IMG/VR virus record: IMGVR_UViG_3300027759_000071
Coordinates: 1 to 64,000 of that record
DNA: 64,000 bases
Source: a virus
Direction: 5' to 3' (one strand)
The notes beneath the pieces were generated by a model that was not told the origin of the DNA, did not search any database, and worked only from the letters and a program-made list of their open reading frames with translations. Within the stretch, counting starts at the first letter, position 1. Each line of letters begins with the position of its first letter. Below are positions 4,894-28,361 of the stretch, one piece after another. The translations under genes were made by a program, and so were the position numbers.

Positions 4894-6549
4894 ATGGCAA
4901 ATTTTGATTTAAGCAAACTTATGGAAGGCAAGAACCCACAAGCGGTAATGTTGGCTGAAACACGTCAATTGAAAAGCAAATGGGAGAAAACAGGTCTTCT
5001 TGAAGGTATGAAAGATAGAGACCAACACTCTATGGCAGTTCTATTAGAGAACCAAGCTAAACAATTGTTGGATGAGGCAACTCAAACAGGTACATCATCA
5101 GGATCAGAAGAATGGTCTGGTGTTGCTTTACCTTTAGTAAGAAGAATCTTCGGAGAAATCGCATCTAAGGAATTCGTTAGTGTTCAACCAATGAACCTTC
5201 CTTCAGGTCTTATTTTCTTCTTAGACTTCAAATATGGTTCTTCTCAAGGTGCACAAGGACAATTCGCTGGTAAATCACTTTTTGGTGGTACTAACGTAAC
5301 TGGTTCAGCAGCTAACTTCGGTAGAACTGACGCAGCAATAGGTGGTTTATATGGTGAAGGACGTTATGGCTATTCAGTAAATGATGCAGTTTCTGCAGCA
5401 GCAACTGGTAAAGCAAATGCAACAGTAGCTAACACATTCTCATCAGCATCTGCAACATGGTCTGATGTTGGATTTGATGCATCTTTATCTGCATCTGTAG
5501 CAGCTGGTGACATTGTTAAATTAACAATTGCAAAAGCTAGTATTTCTACTACTGCTGACACTGAAGCAGTTCGTTCATTCGCTGTAAACAACGCAGCTGT
5601 TGCTTCTCAAATTGGTCAATTCAACTATGTATCTGGTACAAATGTTGTATTGTTCGTTTCTGCATCTGATATAACTGATTTCTATACGACTGGTGGTGAG
5701 ACTATCACTGTAACTTATTCTGAAGTTCCTGTAGCTTACGATAGAGGTGATTTCGAAGATTCAACTGCAAACTCTGCTGGTAACACAACAACTGCATTGG
5801 ATATTCCTGAAATCGATCTTGAATTAAAATCAGAGGCTATCGTTGCTAAGACTCGTAAGTTGAAAGCAGTATGGACTCCTGAATTAGCACAAGATTTGAA
5901 TGCATATCATTCAATCGATGCTGAAGCTGAATTAACTTCTATGTTATCTGATTATATCTCTTTAGAGATTGATTTAGAAATCTTAGATATGTTAAAATCA
6001 AACGCTTTGACTACTGAATACTGGTCTACAACTGTAGGTGAGGAATATGTACAAGGTGCTTGGTCTAATATCGGTGGTTCTTCAAATGCATACACAAAGA
6101 ATGCATGGTTTCAAACTTTAGGTGTTAAATTGAACAAAGTATCTAACAAGATTCATCAATTAACATTAAGAGGTGGTGCTAACTTTATCGTTGCTTCTCC
6201 TGATGTTTGTACTGTTTTAGAATCAATTCCTGGATTCGTTGTAAATGCAGATAAAGATGCAATGCAGTTCGCTGCTGGTGTTACTGCAGTTGGTTCTATG
6301 AGTAATAGATACACAGTTTACAAAAACCCTTACATGACTTCTAACGAAATCTTGATGGGTTATAGAGGTAACAACTTCTTAGAGACTGGTGCTGTTTACG
6401 CTCCATATGTACCATTGATTATGACTCCATTAGTGTATGACCCTCAAAACTTCACACCAAGACGTGGAGTTATGACTAGATACGCTAAGAAGATGGTCCG
6501 CCCTGAGTACTACGGGAAGATTTATGTTAAAGATTTAGCTTCTATCTAA
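4894..6549 (+). CDS. gp23: Major capsid protein (T4 gp23-like)
   Basis: LLENQ, LPLVRR, VSVQPMNLPSGLIFFLD, AKTRKLKAVWTPELAQDLNAYHSIDAEAEL, YAPYVPL, FTPRRGVMTRYA motifs. Confidence 0.97.
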   Translation: MANFDLSKLMEGKNPQAVMLAETRQLKSKWEKTGLLEGMKDRDQHSMAVLLENQAKQLLDEATQTGTSSGSEEWSGVALPLVRRIFGEIASKEFVSVQPMNLPSGLIFFLDFKYGSSQGAQGQFAGKSLFGGTNVTGSAANFGRTDAAIGGLYGEGRYGYSVNDAVSAAATGKANATVANTFSSASATWSDVGFDASLSASVAAGDIVKLTIAKASISTTADTEAVRSFAVNNAAVASQIGQFNYVSGTNVVLFVSASDITDFYTTGGETITVTYSEVPVAYDRGDFEDSTANSAGNTTTALDIPEIDLELKSEAIVAKTRKLKAVWTPELAQDLNAYHSIDAEAELTSMLSDYISLEIDLEILDMLKSNALTTEYWSTTVGEEYVQGAWSNIGGSSNAYTKNAWFQTLGVKLNKVSNKIHQLTLRGGANFIVASPDVCTVLESIPGFVVNADKDAMQFAAGVTAVGSMSNRYTVYKNPYMTSNEILMGYRGNNFLETGAVYAPYVPLIMTPLVYDPQNFTPRRGVMTRYAKKMVRPEYYGKIYVKDLASI

Positions 6550-7969: not shown

Positions 7970-9007
7970 ATGAGCAAGCAACCAAAGCATCAAATACTTC
8001 AACCAAAAAATGTAGAACAATATTGTAGTTATACAAAAGTTGGAAGCAAAGTATATGGTAACACTATCGAATCTGCTTCATTGGAGATGGAAACTTATGT
8101 AAGTGCTTCTTTTGATTCAGTAAGTGCAAGTTTTATTTCTAACATTAGGGTTCGTAATTCAAATTCATTAAAGCAACAATTAAAAGCAGCAAGTTCATCT
8201 TCATTAGATATAGCAGAAATTATAGGATTGTATGATATAAGATTGAATCCAGATTTATATAAAAAATATCAATTAAATTACGCATTATCAACTGGTTCAA
8301 CTTTTAACGAAGCAGTAATGTGGGCAGATAGAAACTTACATTGTATAGAACCAGCAGCAAGTGGTGACCTTACATTAGTATTTTCAAGCTTTACAACGGT
8401 TGATTTACTTTTAACAAATGGATTTGATAGTCTTAGTGATTGGAATACTGCATTAATACAAACCGGTAATCCTTATACATCAATTAGTGTAGATGAAGAA
8501 ACATATACAATATATTTAAGTGGTGGTTCTAATGTAGTATTAAAAAATTATGCATTTGTTGGTTATATTGAAGCTCCTAATGGGCTTGGACATGACCTTT
8601 TAGAAATTCAAGATAATGGAACAATTTCAGAAGTTGGATATGGTGGATTCCAAGGTTGTGATAATCTTACTACGGTTGAATTATTAGGAGCAACAACAAT
8701 TGCGGATAATTCATTCTCAGCTGATTCTAAATTACAATATGTGTATTTACCAAATGTAACATCGGTTGGGGCTAGTGGATTTTATTCTGCTTTTAACGCA
8801 GCAACTTTACCAATAACATTATATTTACCTCTTTGTACTTCGTTAGGAGTAGCCGCACTTAGTGGACCAATTAATATTGATACACCAAACGGATTGATAG
8901 CAACATTCCCTATTGTAATGCAAACCAATGGTGGAGGTGGAGGTGTTAATGATGAAATCCAACAATTAATCGCATATAGTGATGGGGCAGTAATAAATTA
9001 TGTTTAA
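7970..9007 (+). CDS. Protein with BspA-type leucine-rich repeats
   Basis: GGFQGCDNLTTVELLGATTIADNSFSADSKLQYVYLPNVTSVGASGF fits the LRR_5 pattern. Confidence 0.65.
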   Translation: MSKQPKHQILQPKNVEQYCSYTKVGSKVYGNTIESASLEMETYVSASFDSVSASFISNIRVRNSNSLKQQLKAASSSSLDIAEIIGLYDIRLNPDLYKKYQLNYALSTGSTFNEAVMWADRNLHCIEPAASGDLTLVFSSFTTVDLLLTNGFDSLSDWNTALIQTGNPYTSISVDEETYTIYLSGGSNVVLKNYAFVGYIEAPNGLGHDLLEIQDNGTISEVGYGGFQGCDNLTTVELLGATTIADNSFSADSKLQYVYLPNVTSVGASGFYSAFNAATLPITLYLPLCTSLGVAALSGPINIDTPNGLIATFPIVMQTNGGGGGVNDEIQQLIAYSDGAVINYV

Positions 9008-9470
9008 TTTAGATGATTACTTATATAGAGATGTAATATCGGTAGAAGAAGAAATTGAATTAAATCAAAATATACCAAATCTTACTAGAAAATATAGTAG
9101 GAAGATATTACGATATGGTATTTCAAAATACAATAATAATTTAATATCTTTAGAAGTACCGCAATATCTTTTAGATTTATCAGACAAACTTACTGAATTG
9201 GGCATACTTAAATTCGTACCCAAAGATTATACAATTAACATTTACAAACCAAATGATTTCATAGATTATCATATTGATTTAGGGGATGATGATACATTAA
9301 TACTTAGTATTCTAACTCCAATCAATTTTAATTTAAAAAAAGGAGATGAGATGGTATCCTTTGAATTCCCACAAAGGTCAGCACTTTTATTAACTGGAGA
9401 GTATAGAACCGATTGGGAACATTCAATAGAGCGTGTTACAGATAGGAGAATATCTGTGGTGTTTAGATAA
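9000..9470 (+). CDS. AlkB-like 2OG-Fe(II) oxygenase
   Basis: TINIY...IDYHID (HxD), FPQRSALLLTGEYRTDWEHSI (distal His), RRISVVFR (RxxxxxR). Confidence 0.85.
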   Translation: MFNLDDYLYRDVISVEEEIELNQNIPNLTRKYSRKILRYGISKYNNNLISLEVPQYLLDLSDKLTELGILKFVPKDYTINIYKPNDFIDYHIDLGDDDTLILSILTPINFNLKKGDEMVSFEFPQRSALLLTGEYRTDWEHSIERVTDRRISVVFR

Positions 9471-18261: not shown

Positions 18262-21200
18262 ATGTATAATAGCGATTTCAACACAAGTAGATATAATGAC
18301 CCAAACGTAACGGTAACTAAGATTACTGAAAATATAAATCGTGTCACAATATCACAAGCGGGAGTTCCTGGTCCAAAGGGCGATAAGGGTGACCCGTATG
18401 GTTCATCTGGAACGGCAGGGTCATCGGGAACATCTGGGACAAGTGGTACATCGGGCTCTGCTGGAAGTAGTGGTACAAGCGGTACAACTGGTTCACATGG
18501 CACATCTGGTTTTAGAGGCCCTGCCGGAACAAGTGGTACAACGGGTAAAGATGGTACATATTTCGGAAGTAGTGGAACTTCAGGAACAACTGGTTCGCAT
18601 GGTACATCTGGTACAAGCGGCTCATCGGGAACATCTGGCACAAGTGGTACATCGGGAACATCTGGAACAAGTGGTACATCTGCAACGGATGGTAGTGCTG
18701 GCACTGACGGTAGCGCTGGTACTGATGGTAGTGCAGGAACGGATGGAACGGCTGGAACTGATGGTTCAGCTGGTACAACAGGTTCACATGGCACATCTGG
18801 TACTAGTGGAAAAAATGGTACATCTGGCTCATCGGGAACATCTGGCACAAGTGGTTCATCTGGAAGTAGTGGTTCAACGGGAACTGCTGGTACATCTGGT
18901 ACAACCGGCTCACAAGGTACATCTGGTACATCTGGAAGTAGTGGAAGTGATGGTTCGTCTGGTACATCTGGTACTGATGGCTCTGCTGGTACATCGGGAA
19001 GTAGTGGAAGTAGCGGAAGTAGTGGTACTGATGGTAGTGCTGGAACTGATGGTAGTGCGGGAACAGATGGTTCAGCCGGTACATCGGGAAGTTCTGGAAG
19101 TAGTGGAACTGATGGTAGTGCCGGAACATCAGGAACAAGTGGTAGCAGTGGTTTAGCAGGTAAAGCTGGTTCATCGGGAACATCCGGTACGAGAGGTACA
19201 TCTGGTAGTAGTGGAGCAAGAGGACCTAATGGTTCTAATGGTTCATCTGGGTCATCGGGAACTTCAGGAAAAAATGGTACATCTGGTAGTAGTGGTAATG
19301 ATGGTACATCCGGTAGTAGTGGAAGTGATGGTTCATCTGGTACAAGCGGTACTGCTGGTTTAAGTGGAGCTGATGGTCCTATTTGGATTTTTGATTCAAC
19401 TATTGCAGCATTTAATGAACCTACCTCTGGACATTTTATAACAAATGATAATTTCTTTAGTTCTATTCTTAATGTTAGTATTTGTGAAGCAAATGCATCT
19501 AATGGAGATATGTATGGATGGTTTAACGCAATTAGCGTATATGCAGCAAATGGACATGATACATATGTAAGAATTAGTCAAGTTGGAAACACTGGTAATT
19601 TTGGTATTTATAAACTTAATACTTGCAATCGTAACCTATCAGGATTAAATCCATATTGGGATATTACATTCTATCAAGTTATTGCATCATCTGGACTTTT
19701 AGATAATGGAATTTCTTTTTCATTTTCTTGGTTTACAAATGGTATAACTGGTACATCGGGAACATCTGGCACAAGCGGCACATCTGGTGAAAGTGGTAGT
19801 GATGGCTCAGCTGGTACATCTGGAACATCTGGTACATCTGGAAGTGGTGGCTCAACTGGTTCGGCTGGTACATCGGGAACATCTGGCACAAGTGGGAGTA
19901 GTGGAAGTAATGGTTCATCGGGAACATCAGGAACATCTGGTACAAGCGGTACATCTGGAAGTGATGGTAGTACGGGGTCAGCGGGAACATCTGGAACATC
20001 TGGCACAAGAGGAACATCGGGAAGTAGTGGTAGAACTCCTATTCAAGGTATAGATTATATTAGTACATCAGGTACAACCGGTTCGGCTGGTACATCCGGA
20101 TTAGATGGGCAATTTTTAGGAAGTAGTGGTTCGTCTGGTAAAGATGGAACATCAGGAAGTTCTGGTTTTAATGGTACGGCTGGTTCATCGGGAACATCTG
20201 GTTCATCGGGTTCATCTGGTATTTCAATAGCAGGTACATCTGGTTCATCTGGTACAACGGGTTCATATGGCACATCTGGTAGTGGTGGGCAAACTGGTTC
20301 ATCGGGAACATCTGGAAGTGATGGATATGATGGAACATCTGGTACATCTGGACAAGCTGGTTCATCGGGAACATCTGGTTCATCTGGTTCATCTGGAACA
20401 TCTGGATTTGATGGAGGACCTGGTTTAAATGGTACGGCTGGAAGTAGTGGTACATCGGGAACGCAAGGTGCACAAGGAGATCCTGGTACATCGGGAACAT
20501 CTGGTACATCTGGTAGTAGTGGACTTGCTGGATTTTCAGGAACATCTGGAACATCTGGTACTGGTGGTTCGGCTGGTACATCTGGAAGTAGTGGAACATC
20601 TGGTACGACAGGTAAAGATGGACAAAATGGTACATCGGGAACATCTGGAACTGGTGGTACATCATCAACCGCTGGTAGTGCTGGTACGGCAGGTTCATCT
20701 GGCACAGGCGGTTCTGCTGGAACTGATGGAGTAGCTGGTTCATCTGGAACATCCGGTAAAAGTGGTACGGATGGTGCAGCTGGTAAAGATGGTTCGTCTG
20801 GAACATCGGGAAACACAGGATATAATGGTACTGATGGTTCAGCCGGCTCATCTGGAGTTAGTGGTACATCTGGTACAACTGGTTATAGTGGTGTTAATGG
20901 AACATCTGGAAGTAGTGGTGCTAATGGAGCAGCTGGTACATCTGGTAAAGATGGTGCTGGATTTAGTGCTATATCACCTACAACATCTGGAGCAGTATTA
21001 ACGGCAAATGGTACGGCAACAAGTGCAACAGCAAATACGGGTGTAACTATTACTGGTAACACACTTTATGCAGATGCATATTATCAAAATTCATCTCGAA
21101 CTTTAAAAACTAATATTCTTCCATTTAATAAATCGGCATTACAAATTATTGGAAATGTTAATGTTGTAGAATTTAATTATTTAACTGATTTAAAAAATAG

Positions 21201-21345
21201 ACATATTGGATTTATTGCAGAAGATACTCCAGTTGAATTGACAACTAAACATCAAAATACAATGGATGTTCCATCTACTGTGGGAGTATTGGTAAAAGCA
21301 GTTCAAGAATTAGAAAAAAGAGTTAAGGATTTAGAAAATAAGTAA
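18262..21345 (+). CDS. Long GTS/GSS-repeat fibre with C-terminal peptidase S74 intramolecular chaperone
   Basis: Two long G-X-Y tracts around a globular insert; C-terminus NSSRTLKTNI...IGFIAED...LVKAVQELEKRV matches the S74 autocleavage chaperone of trimeric fibres. Confidence 0.82.
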   Translation: MYNSDFNTSRYNDPNVTVTKITENINRVTISQAGVPGPKGDKGDPYGSSGTAGSSGTSGTSGTSGSAGSSGTSGTTGSHGTSGFRGPAGTSGTTGKDGTYFGSSGTSGTTGSHGTSGTSGSSGTSGTSGTSGTSGTSGTSATDGSAGTDGSAGTDGSAGTDGTAGTDGSAGTTGSHGTSGTSGKNGTSGSSGTSGTSGSSGSSGSTGTAGTSGTTGSQGTSGTSGSSGSDGSSGTSGTDGSAGTSGSSGSSGSSGTDGSAGTDGSAGTDGSAGTSGSSGSSGTDGSAGTSGTSGSSGLAGKAGSSGTSGTRGTSGSSGARGPNGSNGSSGSSGTSGKNGTSGSSGNDGTSGSSGSDGSSGTSGTAGLSGADGPIWIFDSTIAAFNEPTSGHFITNDNFFSSILNVSICEANASNGDMYGWFNAISVYAANGHDTYVRISQVGNTGNFGIYKLNTCNRNLSGLNPYWDITFYQVIASSGLLDNGISFSFSWFTNGITGTSGTSGTSGTSGESGSDGSAGTSGTSGTSGSGGSTGSAGTSGTSGTSGSSGSNGSSGTSGTSGTSGTSGSDGSTGSAGTSGTSGTRGTSGSSGRTPIQGIDYISTSGTTGSAGTSGLDGQFLGSSGSSGKDGTSGSSGFNGTAGSSGTSGSSGSSGISIAGTSGSSGTTGSYGTSGSGGQTGSSGTSGSDGYDGTSGTSGQAGSSGTSGSSGSSGTSGFDGGPGLNGTAGSSGTSGTQGAQGDPGTSGTSGTSGSSGLAGFSGTSGTSGTGGSAGTSGSSGTSGTTGKDGQNGTSGTSGTGGTSSTAGSAGTAGSSGTGGSAGTDGVAGSSGTSGKSGTDGAAGKDGSSGTSGNTGYNGTDGSAGSSGVSGTSGTTGYSGVNGTSGSSGANGAAGTSGKDGAGFSAISPTTSGAVLTANGTATSATANTGVTITGNTLYADAYYQNSSRTLKTNILPFNKSALQIIGNVNVVEFNYLTDLKNRHIGFIAEDTPVELTTKHQNTMDVPSTVGVLVKAVQELEKRVKDLENK

Positions 21346-23303
21346 TGAGTAAAGTTAATAATTATCTAGTAACATTTACGGAAGTTAGTACTATGGGATT
21401 TACCGCCAAAGCAACTTGGCCGGTTGGGTCTGGTAGTTACGCAATGAATAGAGGTGAGGTTGATACCTATTGGTATGTAAGACAAGATGGAGCAACTTAT
21501 TCAGCATATACAAATAAGAGATATCCTCGTTATCAGGATTTAGAAGCAACTACAACTACTTCAACTACTTCAACTACTTCAACTACCACAACACCCGCCC
21601 CAAGTACTATGTTTGGTAAATCAACCAGTACATATGCTACTGTTGGATTGGCCTGTGCCGGAACAATAACTGGAACGGTATATCAAGACCCAGCATACGG
21701 AACAACGCCAACATCTGGACAGCAATTATATACTGATAGTGGTAGAACTACAACTTGGACTCCACCATCAACATCTGGATATTATCTATTTCAATATGGA
21801 AGTACCTCAAAATGGGCAGTTAGTGTAAGTAGTGGAGGTGTTATTACAGGAGTTACATCGTGTTATTACTCAGCAGTTATTGGATATGATGCATCATCTG
21901 TAACTACCGCTTGTTCTCTTACAAATTCAATAGGTGTTACTGGTAATGATACTGATTTTTGTAATTCAACAAGCTTTACATCTGCTGCAGGATTTTCAAT
22001 GGCTACTGGAAATTATTATCTATCGGATGGAACTAATTATATACAATGTAGTCACACAACTAGTACTAATTTATTCACTAGAATTAGTTTTGGGTGTACT
22101 ACATGTCCAGGTACAACCACAACAACTACAACCACAACAGCAGGTCCTTGTCAAGTATCATTGAGTCCTAGTAATGTTGATGGCGCTACGGCATGTGATA
22201 ATTGGAATAATGTAATTGATAGAACAACATATTATGCATTATATGCAGGATGTTCTGCAACCAATGGCCAACAACTTTATACTAATAGTGGATTAACAAC
22301 ATTAATTCCAAATGGTTGGTATTCTGATGGTACTAATTATTGGTTAGTTGCTGGCGGAGCTGGTACTTTAAATAGCCAAACTGCATGTGCTGGAACAACT
22401 ACAACCACTACAACCACTACAACTACAACAACTACAACAACTACAACAGCAGCTCCATTAAATTCAGTAACCTATGGGTATCACTTATCTGACCCAGACC
22501 AAGCATGTACAAATTATGAAACAAATGTACATGTGACGAAATATAATGCAGGGAATGCAGCTTCTGCAAATGGTATTACAATATACAATAACTCTAATGG
22601 TAGTGGTACACCTACGGATGGATATTATGCTAGAGGCAGTAATGTTTGGTATTCTACCAGTGGTGTATTAGGAAGTGAAGCTGCATGTTATGGAGGAACA
22701 ACCACTACAACCACTACAACTACAACAACGGAGCCGCCAACAACAACGACTACAACAACAACGACTACAACAACGGAGCCGCCAACAACAACGACTACAA
22801 CAACGGAGCCGCCAACAACAACGACTACAACAAGTACTTCAACTACAACGGAGCCGCCAACAACTACGACTACAACAACTGCAGCACCATCTGTAGTGAA
22901 TATCACAGTTAATTATGAGAGTGCAAATAATTTAGGAAACATAACATCTTTAGAAATAATAGGAAATGATGGTACGGGATACCCAGTTACCATAACATCG
23001 GGAACATTCCCATTAACTACCGTTGGGCAATCGGTAACAGCAACCACACCGCACTACGATGGTGAATATACATGGGATACTGACTATCCAAACGGTGTAT
23101 ATGCACCTGTTTTATGGGAAGTTAGACTTTACTATAATAATATTGGTGGAGCAATTGATAAAACAGTTGCAACAAGAAATGGAACAGAATCTGTTTGTTT
23201 TGGTTTAAGTTCAGTATCAGGACCGGGAGCAACTCAATTTGGATTTAGTGCACTAAACCTAGGGGACAGTATTGTAATTGAAGCTAAAGCTGGAATTTGT
23301 TAA
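21345..23303 (+). CDS. Mucin-like virion protein: Cys-bracketed repeat domains joined by poly-Thr linkers
   Basis: Four related AC...LYT...G(Y/W)Y...C domains, poly-Thr runs and a (T)nEPP repeat. Confidence 0.7.
   Translation: MSKVNNYLVTFTEVSTMGFTAKATWPVGSGSYAMNRGEVDTYWYVRQDGATYSAYTNKRYPRYQDLEATTTTSTTSTTSTTTTPAPSTMFGKSTSTYATVGLACAGTITGTVYQDPAYGTTPTSGQQLYTDSGRTTTWTPPSTSGYYLFQYGSTSKWAVSVSSGGVITGVTSCYYSAVIGYDASSVTTACSLTNSIGVTGNDTDFCNSTSFTSAAGFSMATGNYYLSDGTNYIQCSHTTSTNLFTRISFGCTTCPGTTTTTTTTTAGPCQVSLSPSNVDGATACDNWNNVIDRTTYYALYAGCSATNGQQLYTNSGLTTLIPNGWYSDGTNYWLVAGGAGTLNSQTACAGTTTTTTTTTTTTTTTTTTAAPLNSVTYGYHLSDPDQACTNYETNVHVTKYNAGNAASANGITIYNNSNGSGTPTDGYYARGSNVWYSTSGVLGSEAACYGGTTTTTTTTTTTEPPTTTTTTTTTTTTEPPTTTTTTTEPPTTTTTTSTSTTTEPPTTTTTTTAAPSVVNITVNYESANNLGNITSLEIIGNDGTGYPVTITSGTFPLTTVGQSVTATTPHYDGEYTWDTDYPNGVYAPVLWEVRLYYNNIGGAIDKTVATRNGTESVCFGLSSVSGPGATQFGFSALNLGDSIVIEAKAGIC
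22696..22885 (+). repeat. Tandem repeat encoding (T)nEPP
   Basis: Four copies of acaacggagccgccaacaac within ACN-codon runs. Confidence 0.9.
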
Positions 23304-23356: not shown

Positions 23357-25576
23357 ATGGAAGAACTATTTAAATCTTGGGGAATTCAATATGACCCAAA
23401 TAATAGCATAAATGAATTAGCATCCAAACGAATTGAAGTTTGTAATTCATGCGAAAATAAAATACAAAACCAATTATCTAATAATATTTGTAATTTATGC
23501 GGATGTGGATTAAAATCAAAAGTATTCTCATCTGAAAAGGGTGAATGTCCTGCTGGAAAATGGAATGAGGTTGATAATATTCTGTTAAAAAAGAAAATAC
23601 CACAAAATATAAGATATATATGTTGCCAACCAGCAATCACTTATTATACTTGGCAAGTTGAAGTTTTAATTAATAACTTCAAAAAGATGGGAGTTAATCC
23701 AAATTACATTGATATTGTATGTGCTATTGATAATAATGTAATTCCACCAGAATGGATTAAATTAATGACTCATTATAATAGTGTTAGATTTTTCTTTTAT
23801 AATGATACTAGAAAAGATAAAAATTACCAACCATCCATTTATTTTAATCTGATGAAGCAGCATATTGTTGCAAGACCGGAAATTCAAAAGGATGTTTTAT
23901 TTTTACATGATTCGGATATTGTATTTACTAAACCAGTAAATTTTAATTCAATGATGTTTGGAGATGCTTGGTATGTAAGTAACACAAATTCTTATATAAA
24001 CTACGATTACATACAAGTTAAAGGAAACGATATTTACGAAAAAATGTGTGATATAGTTGGTATAAATAAAAATATACCAAAGTTGATGAATAACAATTCA
24101 GGCGGAGCTCAGTATATTGTTAAAAATACTACTTATAAATTTTGGGATAAAGTAGAAAATGATAGTATTGAATTGTATAAATATTTTTGTGAAGTAGAAC
24201 CGCAATATGTAAAAAAGAATGAATATGATTATCCAATTCAAAAATGGACTGCTGGCATGTGGTCTTTACTTTGGAATGCTTGGTTAGCTGGACATGAAAC
24301 TATTGTTGATACAAGAATGGATTTTGGATGGGTTACAAATTCTTACGATGATGTAAATAAATATGCAATATTACATAATTCTGGAGTTACTCCTGCTTTT
24401 AAAAATTTGTTTTTAAAAAGTAATTATATAAATAAATTACCATATTTTGAAAATATTGAAGTAGATACAAATAGGGCATCTTATTATTATTGGCAAGAAG
24501 TGTGTGAAACTGCAAATAAATCTATATTAATAGAGTCAACGCCTGAGATGAAAATTAAAAAAGATTTTGAAAAATACAAAATAACTCAATTACAATTAGA
24601 CCCTTATGGTGTATGTAACGCAAAATGTTGGTATTGTCCTGTAAAATATAAAGGAAATCCGGTAGAGGGTAGAGAAGTAATGAGTATTGAATTGATGGAA
24701 AAGATAATTAAAAATCTAATAGATGAAAGAGATAAGCCAAACGGATTAGTAGGAAAAACATTTAACGGATTATATACAGCGCATTATAACGAAATTTTAT
24801 TATATCCACATTTTGAAGAATTTTTAAAACTATGTAGAAAATATAAATTAGTTACAATGGTACTTTCAAACGGAGTACCTTTGACTCGTAGTAAAATTGA
24901 TATACTAAAAGAATATCAAGATGTACTAAGTGGAATATGCCTAAATACCCCAGCATTTGATGCAGAAACTTGGAGTAAACGAAGTGGTATTAATATAAAG
25001 CAGTTTGATACTTTAATTGATAATATAACATATGCAGTTGAACAATTACCAAATATGGTTAAAAACAAAGCATTTTCAATTCAAATAAATGGAGTGCATG
25101 ATTTATCATTTGGAGATAAAGGTGGATGGTTAGAAAAGGGAGAGCAATTTCCACATGATATAGATTTGGATGTTGAAACTGGAGAATTGGTACAACAAAA
25201 GAAAAAAGCTGAGGAATTATTTCCTGATGTAAACATATTCACTGTCCCATATCTAATTGATAGAGCAGGATTACTGGATGAAGTAATAACCAACAAACCT
25301 GCAATTGAGAGAAATTTAATGAGAAATAACGAAAGTAAGAAAGTTATTGGATGTGGTAATGGTAGAGAGGTGGGTGGTAGACCTATTGGTTGGTTACATG
25401 TAAATGCCGCTGGGGATGCTTTCCTATGTTGTAACGATTATGATTTTGATTTTAAATTTGGTAATTTTAAAACGCAAGAATTAAGAGATTTTTGGGGAAA
25501 CGAAGAACATATCCAAAAAATTAAAACCTCTTATGAAACTATATGTACGAATTGCGCATCTGCAGTTTTTGAGTAA
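23357..25576 (+). CDS. Three-domain fusion: Cys-rich domain + GT-A glycosyltransferase + radical SAM/SPASM-like enzyme
   Basis: CNSC...CNLCGC...CPAGKW; YYTWQVEV...FLHDSDIVF (DxD)...KWTAGMWS; CNAKCWYC (CxxxCxxC); C-terminal GC...LCCNDY...CTNC. Confidence 0.8.
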   Translation: MEELFKSWGIQYDPNNSINELASKRIEVCNSCENKIQNQLSNNICNLCGCGLKSKVFSSEKGECPAGKWNEVDNILLKKKIPQNIRYICCQPAITYYTWQVEVLINNFKKMGVNPNYIDIVCAIDNNVIPPEWIKLMTHYNSVRFFFYNDTRKDKNYQPSIYFNLMKQHIVARPEIQKDVLFLHDSDIVFTKPVNFNSMMFGDAWYVSNTNSYINYDYIQVKGNDIYEKMCDIVGINKNIPKLMNNNSGGAQYIVKNTTYKFWDKVENDSIELYKYFCEVEPQYVKKNEYDYPIQKWTAGMWSLLWNAWLAGHETIVDTRMDFGWVTNSYDDVNKYAILHNSGVTPAFKNLFLKSNYINKLPYFENIEVDTNRASYYYWQEVCETANKSILIESTPEMKIKKDFEKYKITQLQLDPYGVCNAKCWYCPVKYKGNPVEGREVMSIELMEKIIKNLIDERDKPNGLVGKTFNGLYTAHYNEILLYPHFEEFLKLCRKYKLVTMVLSNGVPLTRSKIDILKEYQDVLSGICLNTPAFDAETWSKRSGINIKQFDTLIDNITYAVEQLPNMVKNKAFSIQINGVHDLSFGDKGGWLEKGEQFPHDIDLDVETGELVQQKKKAEELFPDVNIFTVPYLIDRAGLLDEVITNKPAIERNLMRNNESKKVIGCGNGREVGGRPIGWLHVNAAGDAFLCCNDYDFDFKFGNFKTQELRDFWGNEEHIQKIKTSYETICTNCASAVFE

Positions 25577-25633: not shown

Positions 25634-26824
25634 ATGGAACAACAATATCAACCGGGCCAAGTAACAGAAATACTAATATATCCGGGTTCATCTTCTTTTT
25701 TTCCTGGTCAAACACCATTTGGAATATATGATGAGGATTACCGATTTAGTGAAGATGCTCCTAAAATGGCACTTTGGTGTGCTAGAAGATTGGGATACCC
25801 TATTCAAAATATCGAATTAATAGATGAAAACTTCTATGCATGTTTTGAAGAAGCAACATCGGAATACTCCGCACAAGTAAATCAATTTAATATCAGAAAT
25901 GACCTTTATTCACTTAAAGGTAGACCATCTGGTACAAACTATTCACAAAAATTAGTAGAAGGTACTATTTTGCCACACTTAGTACAAATTTCAGACGCAT
26001 ATGGTACTTTGGTAGGAGTTGGTGGAAATACTGAAATTAAGAAAACAAAGATAACTTTAACAGCGGGTCAGCAAGTATATGATTTAGATACATTGATATC
26101 AGTTGTGAGTGAAAGTGGTAATCGTATTGATATTAGTAGAGTTTATTTTGAAGCAACGCCAGCAATCAATAGATTCTTTGACCCATATTCAGTAAGTGGA
26201 CAAGGTACATTGAATTTAATTGATGAATTTGGATTTGGTTCATATTCACCAGCAGCACAATTTGTATTGATGCCTGTATTTGAAGATTTACTTAGAATAC
26301 AACATATTGAGTTTAATGACCAGATTAGAAAATCGGCACATACATTTAATATAATAGATAATAAACTTACTATATTTCCAAGACCAACAACTACAACAAT
26401 CTCAACAAAACCAAATCTTTACATAGATTATTTTGTAAGAAACGATTTTATAACAAATTCTACATCTGTTAAAAGCGATGTGGTAGCTGATTATTCTAAT
26501 GTAGGATATGATTTTATTACATATGATTCAATAAACGATGTTGGTAAGCAATGGATTAGAAAATATACATTAGCTTTAGTAAAAGAAATGTTAGGTGCTA
26601 TTAGAGAGAAATATTCTAATATTCCTATTCCTGGCGCAGAGATATCATTAGATGGAGCTGCATTGAGAAGTGAAGCACAAACCGAAAAAGATAACTTGAT
26701 GACTCAATTAAGAGAAACTTTAGAAGAATTAAGTAGAAAGGTTCAGTTTGAAAACAGAGCTAATGAAGCTAAGCAACAGCAAGAAATGTTACAAAAAGTA
26801 CCGTTGGCAATATACATTGGATAA
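25634..26824 (+). CDS. gp13: Neck protein / head-tail adaptor (T4 gp13-like)
   Basis: RRLGYPIQNIEL N-terminal motif and WIRKYTLALVKEMLGAIREKY...PGAEISLDGAALRSEA C-terminal motif. Confidence 0.82.
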   Translation: MEQQYQPGQVTEILIYPGSSSFFPGQTPFGIYDEDYRFSEDAPKMALWCARRLGYPIQNIELIDENFYACFEEATSEYSAQVNQFNIRNDLYSLKGRPSGTNYSQKLVEGTILPHLVQISDAYGTLVGVGGNTEIKKTKITLTAGQQVYDLDTLISVVSESGNRIDISRVYFEATPAINRFFDPYSVSGQGTLNLIDEFGFGSYSPAAQFVLMPVFEDLLRIQHIEFNDQIRKSAHTFNIIDNKLTIFPRPTTTTISTKPNLYIDYFVRNDFITNSTSVKSDVVADYSNVGYDFITYDSINDVGKQWIRKYTLALVKEMLGAIREKYSNIPIPGAEISLDGAALRSEAQTEKDNLMTQLRETLEELSRKVQFENRANEAKQQQEMLQKVPLAIYIG

Positions 26825-26826
26825 TT

Positions 26827-27282
26827 ATGGCAAGATTTGCATTAAGTAGAGATATAAAATTCTTTGAAGGAATATCAAGAGAATTAGTAGAAGCAGTAGT
26901 TGAAAACATTGTAGTTTTTTACAAGCTTATTATTAATGATTCTAAAGTAAACCTATATGGTGAATCGCTTTCTAAAAGTTATTACGATGGAGTACATTGT
27001 GCAGCTATGCTCGATAGACAAGATACAACTGCTAATTATGAGGGATTTGGCGCAGATGCATCTCAAATTGTTCAATTCCGTTTTAATAGATTTACTTTAG
27101 AAGACAAAAACTTTTATCCTGAAATTGGCGATTTAATTTTTCATAATAACGCATATTACGAAATTGATAATGTAAATGAAGACCAGTTTATAGCTGGACA
27201 AGAATCTCATAAATTTTCAATAATATGTTCTACATTTATGAGTAGAAAATCAACAATTCAAACTGAACCAAGAACTATATAA
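26827..27282 (+). CDS. gp14: Neck/head-closure protein (T4 gp14-like)
   Basis: NLYGES and PEIGDLIF...YYEI motifs; follows the gp13-like gene. Confidence 0.7.
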   Translation: MARFALSRDIKFFEGISRELVEAVVENIVVFYKLIINDSKVNLYGESLSKSYYDGVHCAAMLDRQDTTANYEGFGADASQIVQFRFNRFTLEDKNFYPEIGDLIFHNNAYYEIDNVNEDQFIAGQESHKFSIICSTFMSRKSTIQTEPRTI

Positions 27283-28361
27283 TGGAAAGAAAAGATACAA
27301 ATAGGGCAAACCAATTATCAATAGATAAACAATTCCAAAAAGGAGTTTCTCTTATTGATGTGGATGGTGCTATTGCAGAGTATATGGTTAATCATATTAT
27401 TCCGGATTTAACGGAAAATGGTAACACAGTAAAAGTTCCAATGATATATGGTAATGCTGAGAGATGGGAAGGTGCACGAAAGAATGGATATCTAAGAGAC
27501 CAAAGAGGTAGAATACAAATACCTTTAGTAATGTTTAAAAGAAATTCAATACAAAGAGATGATTCGCATCCAATATTAAAGGATGTGTATAAAATGCCAG
27601 CATATAAAAAATATTCTACAACAAATAGATATGATAGATTCACTACAATAAATGGAGCAACTCCTACATACGAAACATATGAGGTATCTATTCCATCTTA
27701 TGTAACTGTAACTTACGAAGTAATGATTTGGACATCATTTACAGAACATATGAATAAAATAGTTGAAGCATTTCAATACGCTACTGATAGATATTGGGGA
27801 AATGAGGAAGGATATAAATTTAGAACTAAAATAGATTCATTTGAAAATCAGCAAGAAGTTGGTGAGGGAACTGAAAGAGTTATCCGCACAACGTTTACAA
27901 TGGCTGTAAATGCATATCTTTTACCTGAAGTATTTGATAAGAAGCCAGTTGTTAAAAAAAGATTTACTCCAAAAAGAGTAATATTTGGAATTGAAACGGA
28001 CTTAACTGGAAATTCATTTTCAAATGGTAGTGTTTATAATGAATATTCAAATGTGATTAATTTTATTGCTGTTAGAGGTTCTCAATTAGCAGAGTTTGTA
28101 AATTCAAATACTATAAAATTAACAAATGTATCAATACCTATATTACCTAAAGAATTGATAGGTTCATTTGATACAACTAATTGGTTTAGAGTTTATTTAA
28201 ATGGTAAATTTATATCACCATCTCTTTATACATACAACTATAATTCTTTTACAAACGAAATAGTATTTTCATTTGTTGAACCTTGTGAATGGACAAATGA
28301 TTGTAGCGGATTTGAAGATATTGATGAGATTGCAATAACTGGTAAATTTGAGCAAATATGA
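27282..28361 (+). CDS. gp15: Tail terminator/sheath stabiliser (T4 gp15-like) with extra C-terminal beta domain
   Basis: KVPMIYGNAERW, IPLVMFKR, PSYVTVTYEVMIWT...MNKIVE motifs; gene order. Confidence 0.7.
   Translation: MERKDTNRANQLSIDKQFQKGVSLIDVDGAIAEYMVNHIIPDLTENGNTVKVPMIYGNAERWEGARKNGYLRDQRGRIQIPLVMFKRNSIQRDDSHPILKDVYKMPAYKKYSTTNRYDRFTTINGATPTYETYEVSIPSYVTVTYEVMIWTSFTEHMNKIVEAFQYATDRYWGNEEGYKFRTKIDSFENQQEVGEGTERVIRTTFTMAVNAYLLPEVFDKKPVVKKRFTPKRVIFGIETDLTGNSFSNGSVYNEYSNVINFIAVRGSQLAEFVNSNTIKLTNVSIPILPKELIGSFDTTNWFRVYLNGKFISPSLYTYNYNSFTNEIVFSFVEPCEWTNDCSGFEDIDEIAITGKFEQI

Follow-up and report, generated by a model that had tools for sequence, protein, structure and literature searches.

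Architecture of the fusion gene

We analysed the first 64,000 nucleotides (hereafter the window) of IMG/VR virus record IMGVR_UViG_3300027759_000071, an 82-kb phage contig with an estimated completeness of 41%, and focused on one gene at 23357..25576 (+). The gene is an uninterrupted open reading frame (ORF) of 739 aa, in a region of 31% G+C, and Pfam and PHROGs matches divide it into three parts: a module with six cysteines (aa 1–75; 23357..23581, +), a predicted GT-A glycosyltransferase (GT) domain (aa 85–390; 23609..24526, +), and a radical S-adenosylmethionine (SAM) core with a twitch auxiliary-cluster domain (aa 397–739; 24545..25573, +). Two relatives keep all three parts, P0002 from another contig (739 aa, 95% identity) and P0020 (744 aa, 72% identity). 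Since they share the layout, the fusion is no assembly artefact, and the triple fusion proposed in a preliminary description of this DNA stands. Some 45 further clusters (618–690 aa) combine the GT and radical SAM parts without the N-terminal Cys module. Every motif that the preliminary description had named is present: CNSC (aa 29–32), CNLCGC (45–50), ECPAGKW (63–69), YYTWQ (96–100), HDSDI (184–188), QKWTAGMW (295–302) and CNAKCWYC (420–427). The protein has no hydrophobic segment (the Kyte-Doolittle maximum over 19 residues is 0.96) and is therefore predicted to be soluble and cytoplasmic.

The central domain matches phrog_4417 (aa 86–384, 6.7e-64), a family listed as 'unknown function'. Neither Pfam nor NCBIfam names the domain, aa 75–395 match no Pfam family at E <= 10, and a profile of 59 relatives gave only chance-level matches among PDB sequences. 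The family comprises 815 representatives at 50% clustering; a profile search reached 1944 clusters, and the 120 matches listed carry no Pfam domain and are all annotated 'hypothetical protein'. HDSDI (23906..23920, +) contains a DxD motif for metal and nucleotide sugar, D185/D187. Across the 59 relatives D187 (D113 in the alignment) is invariant and D185 (D111) nearly so, and both are invariant in 71 others. The residues common to the 59 are Y83, D113, Y139, Y144, G176, M227, W228, F249, H266, K280 and P288.

An AlphaFold2 (AF2) model of this domain (pLDDT 96, pTM 0.92) has a GT-A fold. Its best solved matches in Foldseek are the UGGT catalytic domain, LARGE1, WbbM, GT6 enzymes, glycogenin, LgtC and GlyE, and VIA, a separate all-against-all comparison, gave Z scores of 15.0 for LgtC, 14.8 for glycogenin, 14.6 for UGGT and for Skp1 alpha-galactosyltransferase, 14.4 for WbbM and 13.4 for GlyE, with lower values for the chlorovirus capsid-glycosylating enzyme A64R (11.2) and for Fringe (10.7). 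The predicted viral structures close to the model are limited to uncharacterised phage proteins (TM 0.92) and LP65 Orf49 (TM 0.70). Judged from the modelled fold and the conserved DxD, the central domain is a glycosyltransferase, as first proposed, of the GT-A type and nearest to the retaining GT8/GT24 group. The likeness to that group (LgtC, glycogenin, UGGT, Skp1 alpha-galactosyltransferase, GlyE) lies in the fold and the DxD, with VIA Z 13.4–15.0 over 216–250 residues, whereas identity is only 6–14%, Pfam Glyco_transf_8 gives no match, and the phrog_4417 family has motifs of its own (YxxWQ, GGAQY, QxWTAxMW and HNxGV). The substrates of several of these enzymes are cytoplasmic proteins or glycans bound to them, and GlyE belongs to the glycosylation of serine-rich-repeat proteins. 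The fold alone does not name the acceptor, because LgtC, which is directed at lipopolysaccharide (LPS), ties with protein-directed enzymes. A match to DNA- or LPS-modifying GTs, which the preliminary description had named as a refutation of its reading, thus argues neither way.

The preliminary description had further likened the domain to plant hydroxyproline arabinosyltransferase (HPAT, GT95) and peptidyl-serine galactosyltransferase (SGT1, GT96), plant and algal enzymes that initiate O-glycosylation of hydroxyl-rich, Pro-punctuated repeats. Any relationship to them would be distant. Two of the 59 relatives match the HPAT model weakly (best 1.3e-4), but the window protein does not match it at E <= 10 and none of the 71 others does at <= 1e-3. 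The Pfam models HPAT (PF23452) and DUF6492 found nothing on the contig, and the Foldseek and VIA structure matches of the domain include no GT95 or GT96 entry.

In 63 of 71 long representatives of the family, the GT domain is N-terminal. The C-terminal partners among the 71 are Glyco_transf_7C (10), Glycos_transf_2 (6), GT6 (3) and Glyco_tranf_2_2 (2), with GT25, GT1, Gly_transf_sug and Methyltransf_24 as single cases; GT11 and further methyltransferases are partners in other relatives. One relative, P0099 (543 aa), has an N-terminal extension that is GT25-like by eye and a Pro-rich tail (PPPPPPLP). Its eukaryotic- or giant-virus-like look suggests that the GT family may reach beyond phages.

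The C-terminal part exceeds the Pfam cut-offs for Radical_SAM (aa 417–566, 36.6 bits; cut-off 29.5) and SPASM (aa 678–733, 33.3 bits; cut-off 21.5), the latter a model that scores twitch domains too. CNAKCWYC (24614..24637, +) provides the CX3CX2C motif for a [4Fe-4S] cluster (C420/C424/C427), and the twitch cysteines follow as C666-x19-G-x4-C691/C692 ... C730-x2-C733 (25346..25561, +). Both sets are invariant in 31 relatives. The fusion protein lacks the full seven-Cys SPASM motif (CX9-15GX4C ... CX2CX5CX3C ... C); because its cysteines are few and it ends six residues past C733, it is predicted to have room for one auxiliary cluster only. The twitch set aligns with the cluster ligands of the 2-deoxy-scyllo-inosamine dehydrogenase BtrN (LCC...CRNC vs LPC...CKNC; PDB 4M7T/4M7S; relatives DesII, BlsE and SpeY), which shares the CX3CX2C motif and the single cluster in a short twitch domain and is the only significant match of the radical SAM family profile among PDB sequences (3.6e-5).

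The AF2 model of the radical SAM domain (pLDDT 90) is a partial TIM-barrel with VIA Z of 13–16 to more than 10 radical SAM structures. Foldseek ranks DesII and BtrN at the top, followed by CteB, anSME, SkfB, SuiB and BlsE; the VIA Z scores are 16.2 for ChlB and SkfB, 16.1 for anSME, 15.7 for CteB, 15.6 for MoaA, 15.2 for BtrN and SuiB, and 14.4 for DesII. The BtrN superposition covers 197/214 residues with an rmsd of 3.2 and 18% identity. On these models and cysteine patterns, the C-terminal domain is a member of the SPASM/twitch clade, of the one-cluster twitch type, in line with the initial assignment. It differs from BtrN in low overall identity (~14–18%), in an insertion of ~50 residues, in its fusion to a GT, and in context, since BtrN belongs to an antibiotic pathway and the gene described here lies among virion proteins. 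Free-standing copies of the radical SAM domain (341–346 aa, 61–74% identity) are common in metagenomes. A tblastn search of 50,697 GenBank phage records with this domain found no homologue, and there is no cultured model phage for this part.

The N-terminal module matches phrog_13558 (aa 12–69, 1.1e-8), also of 'unknown function', and has the invariant pattern R-x3-CxxC-x12-CxxCGC-x4-K-x8-CP-x2-KW. It matches DUF6171 (0.0095) and a double zinc ribbon (0.023) weakly, and its profile yields only weak zinc-ribbon or RING-like matches in the PDB (E 0.04–0.6). The module probably binds metal; it could be a substrate-holding zinc ribbon or an Fe-S/redox partner. In six loci (L009, L010, L011, L014, L015 and L026) a free copy of ~80 aa immediately precedes the radical SAM gene, in L007 one immediately follows it, and in P0088 the module is fused to PF11397. 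The C-P ending of the module, together with a thioredoxin-like gene (WCGPC) that immediately precedes the free radical SAM gene in the L007 region (L052:219-1755), hints at a redox role.

A strict tie between the Cys module and the radical SAM gene is made less likely by phage G006 (complete, 274 kb), in which two free copies lie far from the GT-radical SAM gene, and by L004–L006, which have no module nearby. The G006 copies are paralogues (L053:1001-2182 and L054:1447-2280), one flanked by an APS-kinase-like P-loop gene and a cytidylyltransferase-like gene and the other beside a cupin gene and a thymidylate-synthase-like gene.

Poly-Thr proteins beside the glycosyltransferase

Immediately upstream of the fusion gene, at 21345..23303 (+), lies the gene for a mucin-like protein, the candidate acceptor, which is 25% Thr and contains 15 Cys; its T runs are 6–18 residues long, with EPP/AAP between them. 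No other gene in the 64-kb window has runs of six or more Thr; the two remaining runs lie in minus-strand frames that overlap plus-strand genes. The same pairing is found elsewhere. Three loci (L004, L005 and L006) encode a 'TTTTTT-EAP/EPP' poly-Thr protein with a GT-radical SAM gene directly behind it, and in L016 a GT-family gene likewise lies directly behind the gene for a poly-Thr particle protein. Ten distinct viral loci carry the radical SAM gene, and 8/10 have a poly-Thr gene at most ~3 kb upstream; the sequence of one locus (L014) ends 1.2 kb upstream of the radical SAM gene.

The GT family is also present in cultured phages, sampled here from Chryseobacterium, Enterococcus, Clostridium, Lacticaseibacillus, Staphylococcus, Lactiplantibacillus, Lactococcus and Arcanobacterium. 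In all eight (8/8) the GT gene lies directly behind a capsid, tail-tube or decoration protein with poly-Thr tracts, and the major capsid protein often has the same poly-Thr end. In phiFL2A, for example, gp42 ends in ...TTTTTKPTTTTTKPTTTTTTTQG and gp48 in ...TTTTTSTTTTTTSSTTTTTTTQASSK. The link to a Thr-rich 'mucin' gene, which the preliminary description had drawn from the window, thus recurs in many independent loci.

Several poly-Thr genes have distinctive ends. Cys-rich-ended genes lie at L009:596-1645, L010:7018-7542, L011:5590-7476, L015:3925-5559 and L016:166-2151, as well as at 21345-23303 in the window, and in aquatic-phage poly-Thr proteins the Cys is usually at or beside the C-terminus (...CCAC, ...CTAC, ...GPGC, ...GIC). 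In Staphylococcus phage RQ1 (L020:4247-4949) and Arcanobacterium phage TPWB06 (L023:4164-4926), the T run at the end of the major tail protein is overlapped by a short ORF made almost entirely of (T)n-xP repeats, an arrangement that suggests a longer tail tube protein, produced by frameshifting, with the poly-Thr tract on it. The GT homologue behind the major tail protein gp48 of phiFL2A (L002:4001-4889) is unannotated and was matched in two pieces. The GT gene may carry a frameshift in phiFL2A and in phiFL1C; phiFL1A, phiFL1B and phiFL2B match in one piece.

The window covers the structural block of an uncultured, aquatic, T4-like myophage. Its gp23 capsid gene lies at 4894-6549, and the nearest capsids are those of an uncultured 484-kb phage (55%), Microcystis phage Mel-JY01 (51%) and Flavobacterium phage immuto (50%). 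The fusion gene is followed by genes for the neck and the tail-sheath stabiliser (Ad2-like, Hc2-like and gp15-like by Pfam and PHROGs; 25634..28361, +) and therefore sits inside the virion structural block. Upstream of the mucin-like gene is a collagen-like G-T/S-S fibre gene with a Peptidase_S74 chaperone end (18262..21345, +; Pfam Collagen 7.2e-92, Peptidase_S74 7.1e-9), and collagen-like fibres occur in the window along with two giant ORFs (5011 aa and 4164 aa). No other sugar enzyme was found among the scanned or inspected genes of the 82-kb contig, and a promoter and terminator scan around the fusion gene gave a signal no better than that of shuffled sequence. A 156-aa 2-oxoglutarate (2OG)-Fe(II) oxygenase adjoins a leucine-rich-repeat protein at 9000-9470 (PF13532, 2e-8); considered as a prolyl hydroxylase, it was ruled out as being of the AlkB type.

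Joins of the radical SAM family with glycosyltransferases

The radical SAM family is joined to GTs in several ways. It is fused to phrog_4417 in the window protein and the ~45 clusters mentioned above. In four loci (L009, L010, L011 and L014; L012, L013 and L017 are identical to L011) a free-standing radical SAM gene adjoins a PF11397 'GlcNAc' GT gene or overlaps it, and in L015 the PF11397 gene precedes the radical SAM gene. In metagenome-assembled genomes (MAGs) of Syntrophorhabdus and other Deltaproteobacteria, on contigs of up to 1.4 Mb, PF11397 and radical SAM/SPASM are combined in one 622-aa protein. A more distant family member, in a Geobacter MAG (L045:6619-8888), is a 558-aa fusion of GT2, radical SAM and SPASM, and its gene lies directly behind that of a 201-aa 'APTTTTAAPTTTT' repeat protein ('TTTTAAP'). 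The joins with phrog_4417, PF11397 and GT2 thus connect three GT-A families to the radical SAM family. Fused and free forms are intermixed in the tree of the phage clade, and well-supported branches force at least four changes between them.

Two of these settings have further features. Two more ORFs lie upstream of the repeat protein in L045, one with T10 runs, in a region that resembles a prophage tail. The 622-aa fusion gene of L037 (6031-9844; also L027–L034, L036 and L046) follows DUF3540, Tox-PAAR-like and pentapeptide-repeat genes. This order resembles a type VI secretion cargo layout, in which the fusion could be an effector or a spike-modifying enzyme.

The gene directly downstream of the GT-radical SAM gene in L005 (10372-14816; the same in L006 and L004) encodes a 722-aa GT1, Methyltransf_24 and GT25 fusion, and the stretch also contains GT9-like (heptosyltransferase-like), cytidylyltransferase-like and PfkB kinase genes; the kinase and adenylyltransferase genes of the set are HldE-like. 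The set resembles an ADP-heptose supply with its transferase, which hints at heptose in the glycan. Elsewhere, PF13640 2OG-Fe(II) oxygenases of the prolyl-hydroxylase type occur in clusters of 5–7 genes next to the set of Cys module, radical SAM and PF11397 genes (L011:9945-16572 and L009:5509-10497), and in L014 (628-1233) one separates the Cys module from the radical SAM gene.

Candidate activity of the fusion enzyme

From the domain identities, folds, motifs and genomic linkage described above, we infer an acceptor, a type of sugar chemistry and a role for the radical SAM part. In the reading that we favour, with a probability of roughly 0.5, the fusion enzyme O-glycosylates the upstream mucin-like protein and the radical SAM part tailors the sugar. 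The gene product would be a soluble, late-expressed enzyme of virion-protein glycosylation. In a first step, its GT-A domain would use a nucleotide sugar and a DxD-bound metal to place a sugar on the poly-Thr hydroxyls of the mucin-like protein, probably in alpha linkage because the nearest folds are those of retaining enzymes. In a second step, the BtrN-like twitch domain would cleave SAM to a 5'-deoxyadenosyl radical that takes a hydrogen off a sugar carbon, either of the sugar just installed or of the nucleotide-sugar donor, and so yield a keto, epimerised or deoxy sugar. The module with six cysteines would be a metal-binding accessory with a redox or substrate-holding function.

Three observations favour the sugar as the target of the radical chemistry, an assignment that we regard as about evenly balanced: the C-terminal slot of the GT otherwise holds glycan enzymes, the twitch type and the sequence link to BtrN point to carbohydrate-type substrates, and L005 and L006 continue with glycan-building genes.

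Other observations weigh against this reading. In L007, a radical SAM gene and a Cys module occur with no poly-Thr gene within ±8 kb, and the 56.8 kb of that contig that were examined contain neither a phrog_4417 nor a PF11397 GT. The surroundings of the Syntrophorhabdus fusions are those of type VI secretion and include no poly-Thr gene. The two AF2 models were made separately, one for each domain, and do not display how the active sites face each other. The structure ranking separates no sugar-directed from peptide-directed enzymes, since ChlB, SkfB, anSME and CteB tie with BtrN and DesII. Finally, the poly-Thr proteins in radical SAM loci end Cys-rich (the window, L005, L006, L009, L010, L011 and L015), and such ends would suit a peptide cross-linking enzyme.

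The last two points also support a rather doubtful alternative, in which the radical SAM part acts on the polypeptide, by thioether cross-linking, epimerisation or an anSME-like oxidation of Ser, Thr or Cys, and the domains are fused because they share a protein substrate. The maturases ChlB, SkfB, anSME and CteB are among the top VIA matches (Z 15.7–16.2), the Cys of the poly-Thr proteins is often terminal, and SkfB, itself a twitch enzyme, makes thioethers. However, the cysteine pattern allows one auxiliary cluster, and most peptide-modifying SPASM enzymes have two. The Pfam scan of the fusion protein revealed no RRE or PqqD-like leader-binding domain, and BtrN, the one significant sequence match, argues for a different substrate. 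All other identified fusion partners of the GT act on glycans. In addition, phage G003 (85% complete) lacks a radical SAM gene while encoding both the GT and a Cys-rich poly-Thr protein.

We consider it unlikely that the acceptor is hydroxyproline, as it is for plant HPAT and Skp1 Gnt1, with the Pro of xP-(T)n hydroxylated first and the radical SAM part and Cys module preparing the acceptor. Pro does directly precede the T run in most repeats seen (KP/AP/QP/EP-TTTT; EPP/AAP/PAP), and PF13640 oxygenases adjoin the module or lie within it in L009, L011 and L014, the last with the order Cys module, oxygenase, radical SAM, GT. The two weak HPAT matches among the relatives point the same way, as does the alternative partner PF11397, the family of the Skp1 hydroxyproline GlcNAc-transferase. 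Yet the 82-kb contig yielded no PF13640-type oxygenase, the one 2OG oxygenase scanned in the window being of the AlkB type, and none is annotated within ±4–6 kb of the GT in the cultured Gram-positive phages inspected. The oxygenase is also no substitute for the radical SAM enzyme, because both are present where the oxygenase occurs, and we know of no precedent for proline hydroxylation by a radical SAM enzyme.

An action off the virion, on phage DNA bases (JGT/TAGT type), a host envelope polymer or a small molecule, with the gene position incidental, is very unlikely: GREB1/JGT/TAGT-related GT-A enzymes do modify phage DNA bases (PMC7968844), the LPS enzyme LgtC and the O-antigen enzyme WbbM rank high among the fold matches, and the contig is only an estimated 41% of the genome, but the GT family lies directly behind poly-Thr-tailed capsid and tail proteins, also in siphophages of 36–59 kb, the gene immediately upstream is the only one in the window with T runs of six or more, the fusion protein has no membrane segment, Fringe, which PMC7968844 likens to the GREB1 GT domain and hence to the DNA-base enzymes, ranks below GT8/GT24 (Z 10.7), and no TET/JBP or base-hydroxymethylating gene was found among the scanned or inspected genes of the 82-kb contig, 41% of the genome.

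O-glycosylation of the mucin-like protein with tailoring of its sugar, the reading preferred here, has its closest parallel in mycobacteriophages, in which phage GTs modify particle proteins and glycans occur at the C-termini of capsid and tail-tube subunits (PMC12619734, PMC12801897). That system corresponds to ours in that the GT relatives described here sit behind capsid and tail-tube proteins with poly-Thr C-termini. It differs in that our GT belongs to the unannotated phrog_4417 family, that the candidate acceptor in the window is a separate mucin-like protein, and that a radical SAM part and a six-Cys module are attached, neither of which is mentioned in those accounts. A literature search for poly-threonine phage proteins and for radical SAM enzymes with phage glycoproteins returned nothing on this system; among the publications found, none describes the pairing of a GT with a radical SAM enzyme for any virus or reports radical SAM tailoring of glycoproteins. 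The new content of this work is the radical SAM fusion, the repeated independent joins of GT and radical SAM, and the Cys module.

A wider interpretation is possible, and we advance it tentatively, at somewhat less than even odds. GT and twitch radical SAM, often with the six-Cys module, may operate as one unit on mucin-like virion proteins with poly-Thr tracts, giving them either a sugar altered by radical chemistry or a sugar-protein link of a non-standard kind. This unit may have arisen on at least three occasions, each with a different GT family, and, in Syntrophorhabdus, may serve as cargo beside a PAAR-like type VI gene, which would amount to a previously unrecognised pathway.

To our knowledge, self-glycosylation of phage particles has been proven experimentally in mycobacteriophages only, where it shields virions from antibodies. 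If the favoured reading is true, phage self-glycosylation would extend to aquatic, gut and dairy phages, and radical SAM tailoring would be an added chemical step for glycoproteins. The enzyme, one compact polypeptide whose candidate substrate is genetically linked to it, may offer a tool for placing unusual O-glycans on Thr-repeat tags. The repeated, independent GT-radical SAM fusions define an orphan radical SAM family with a strong hint as to its substrate.

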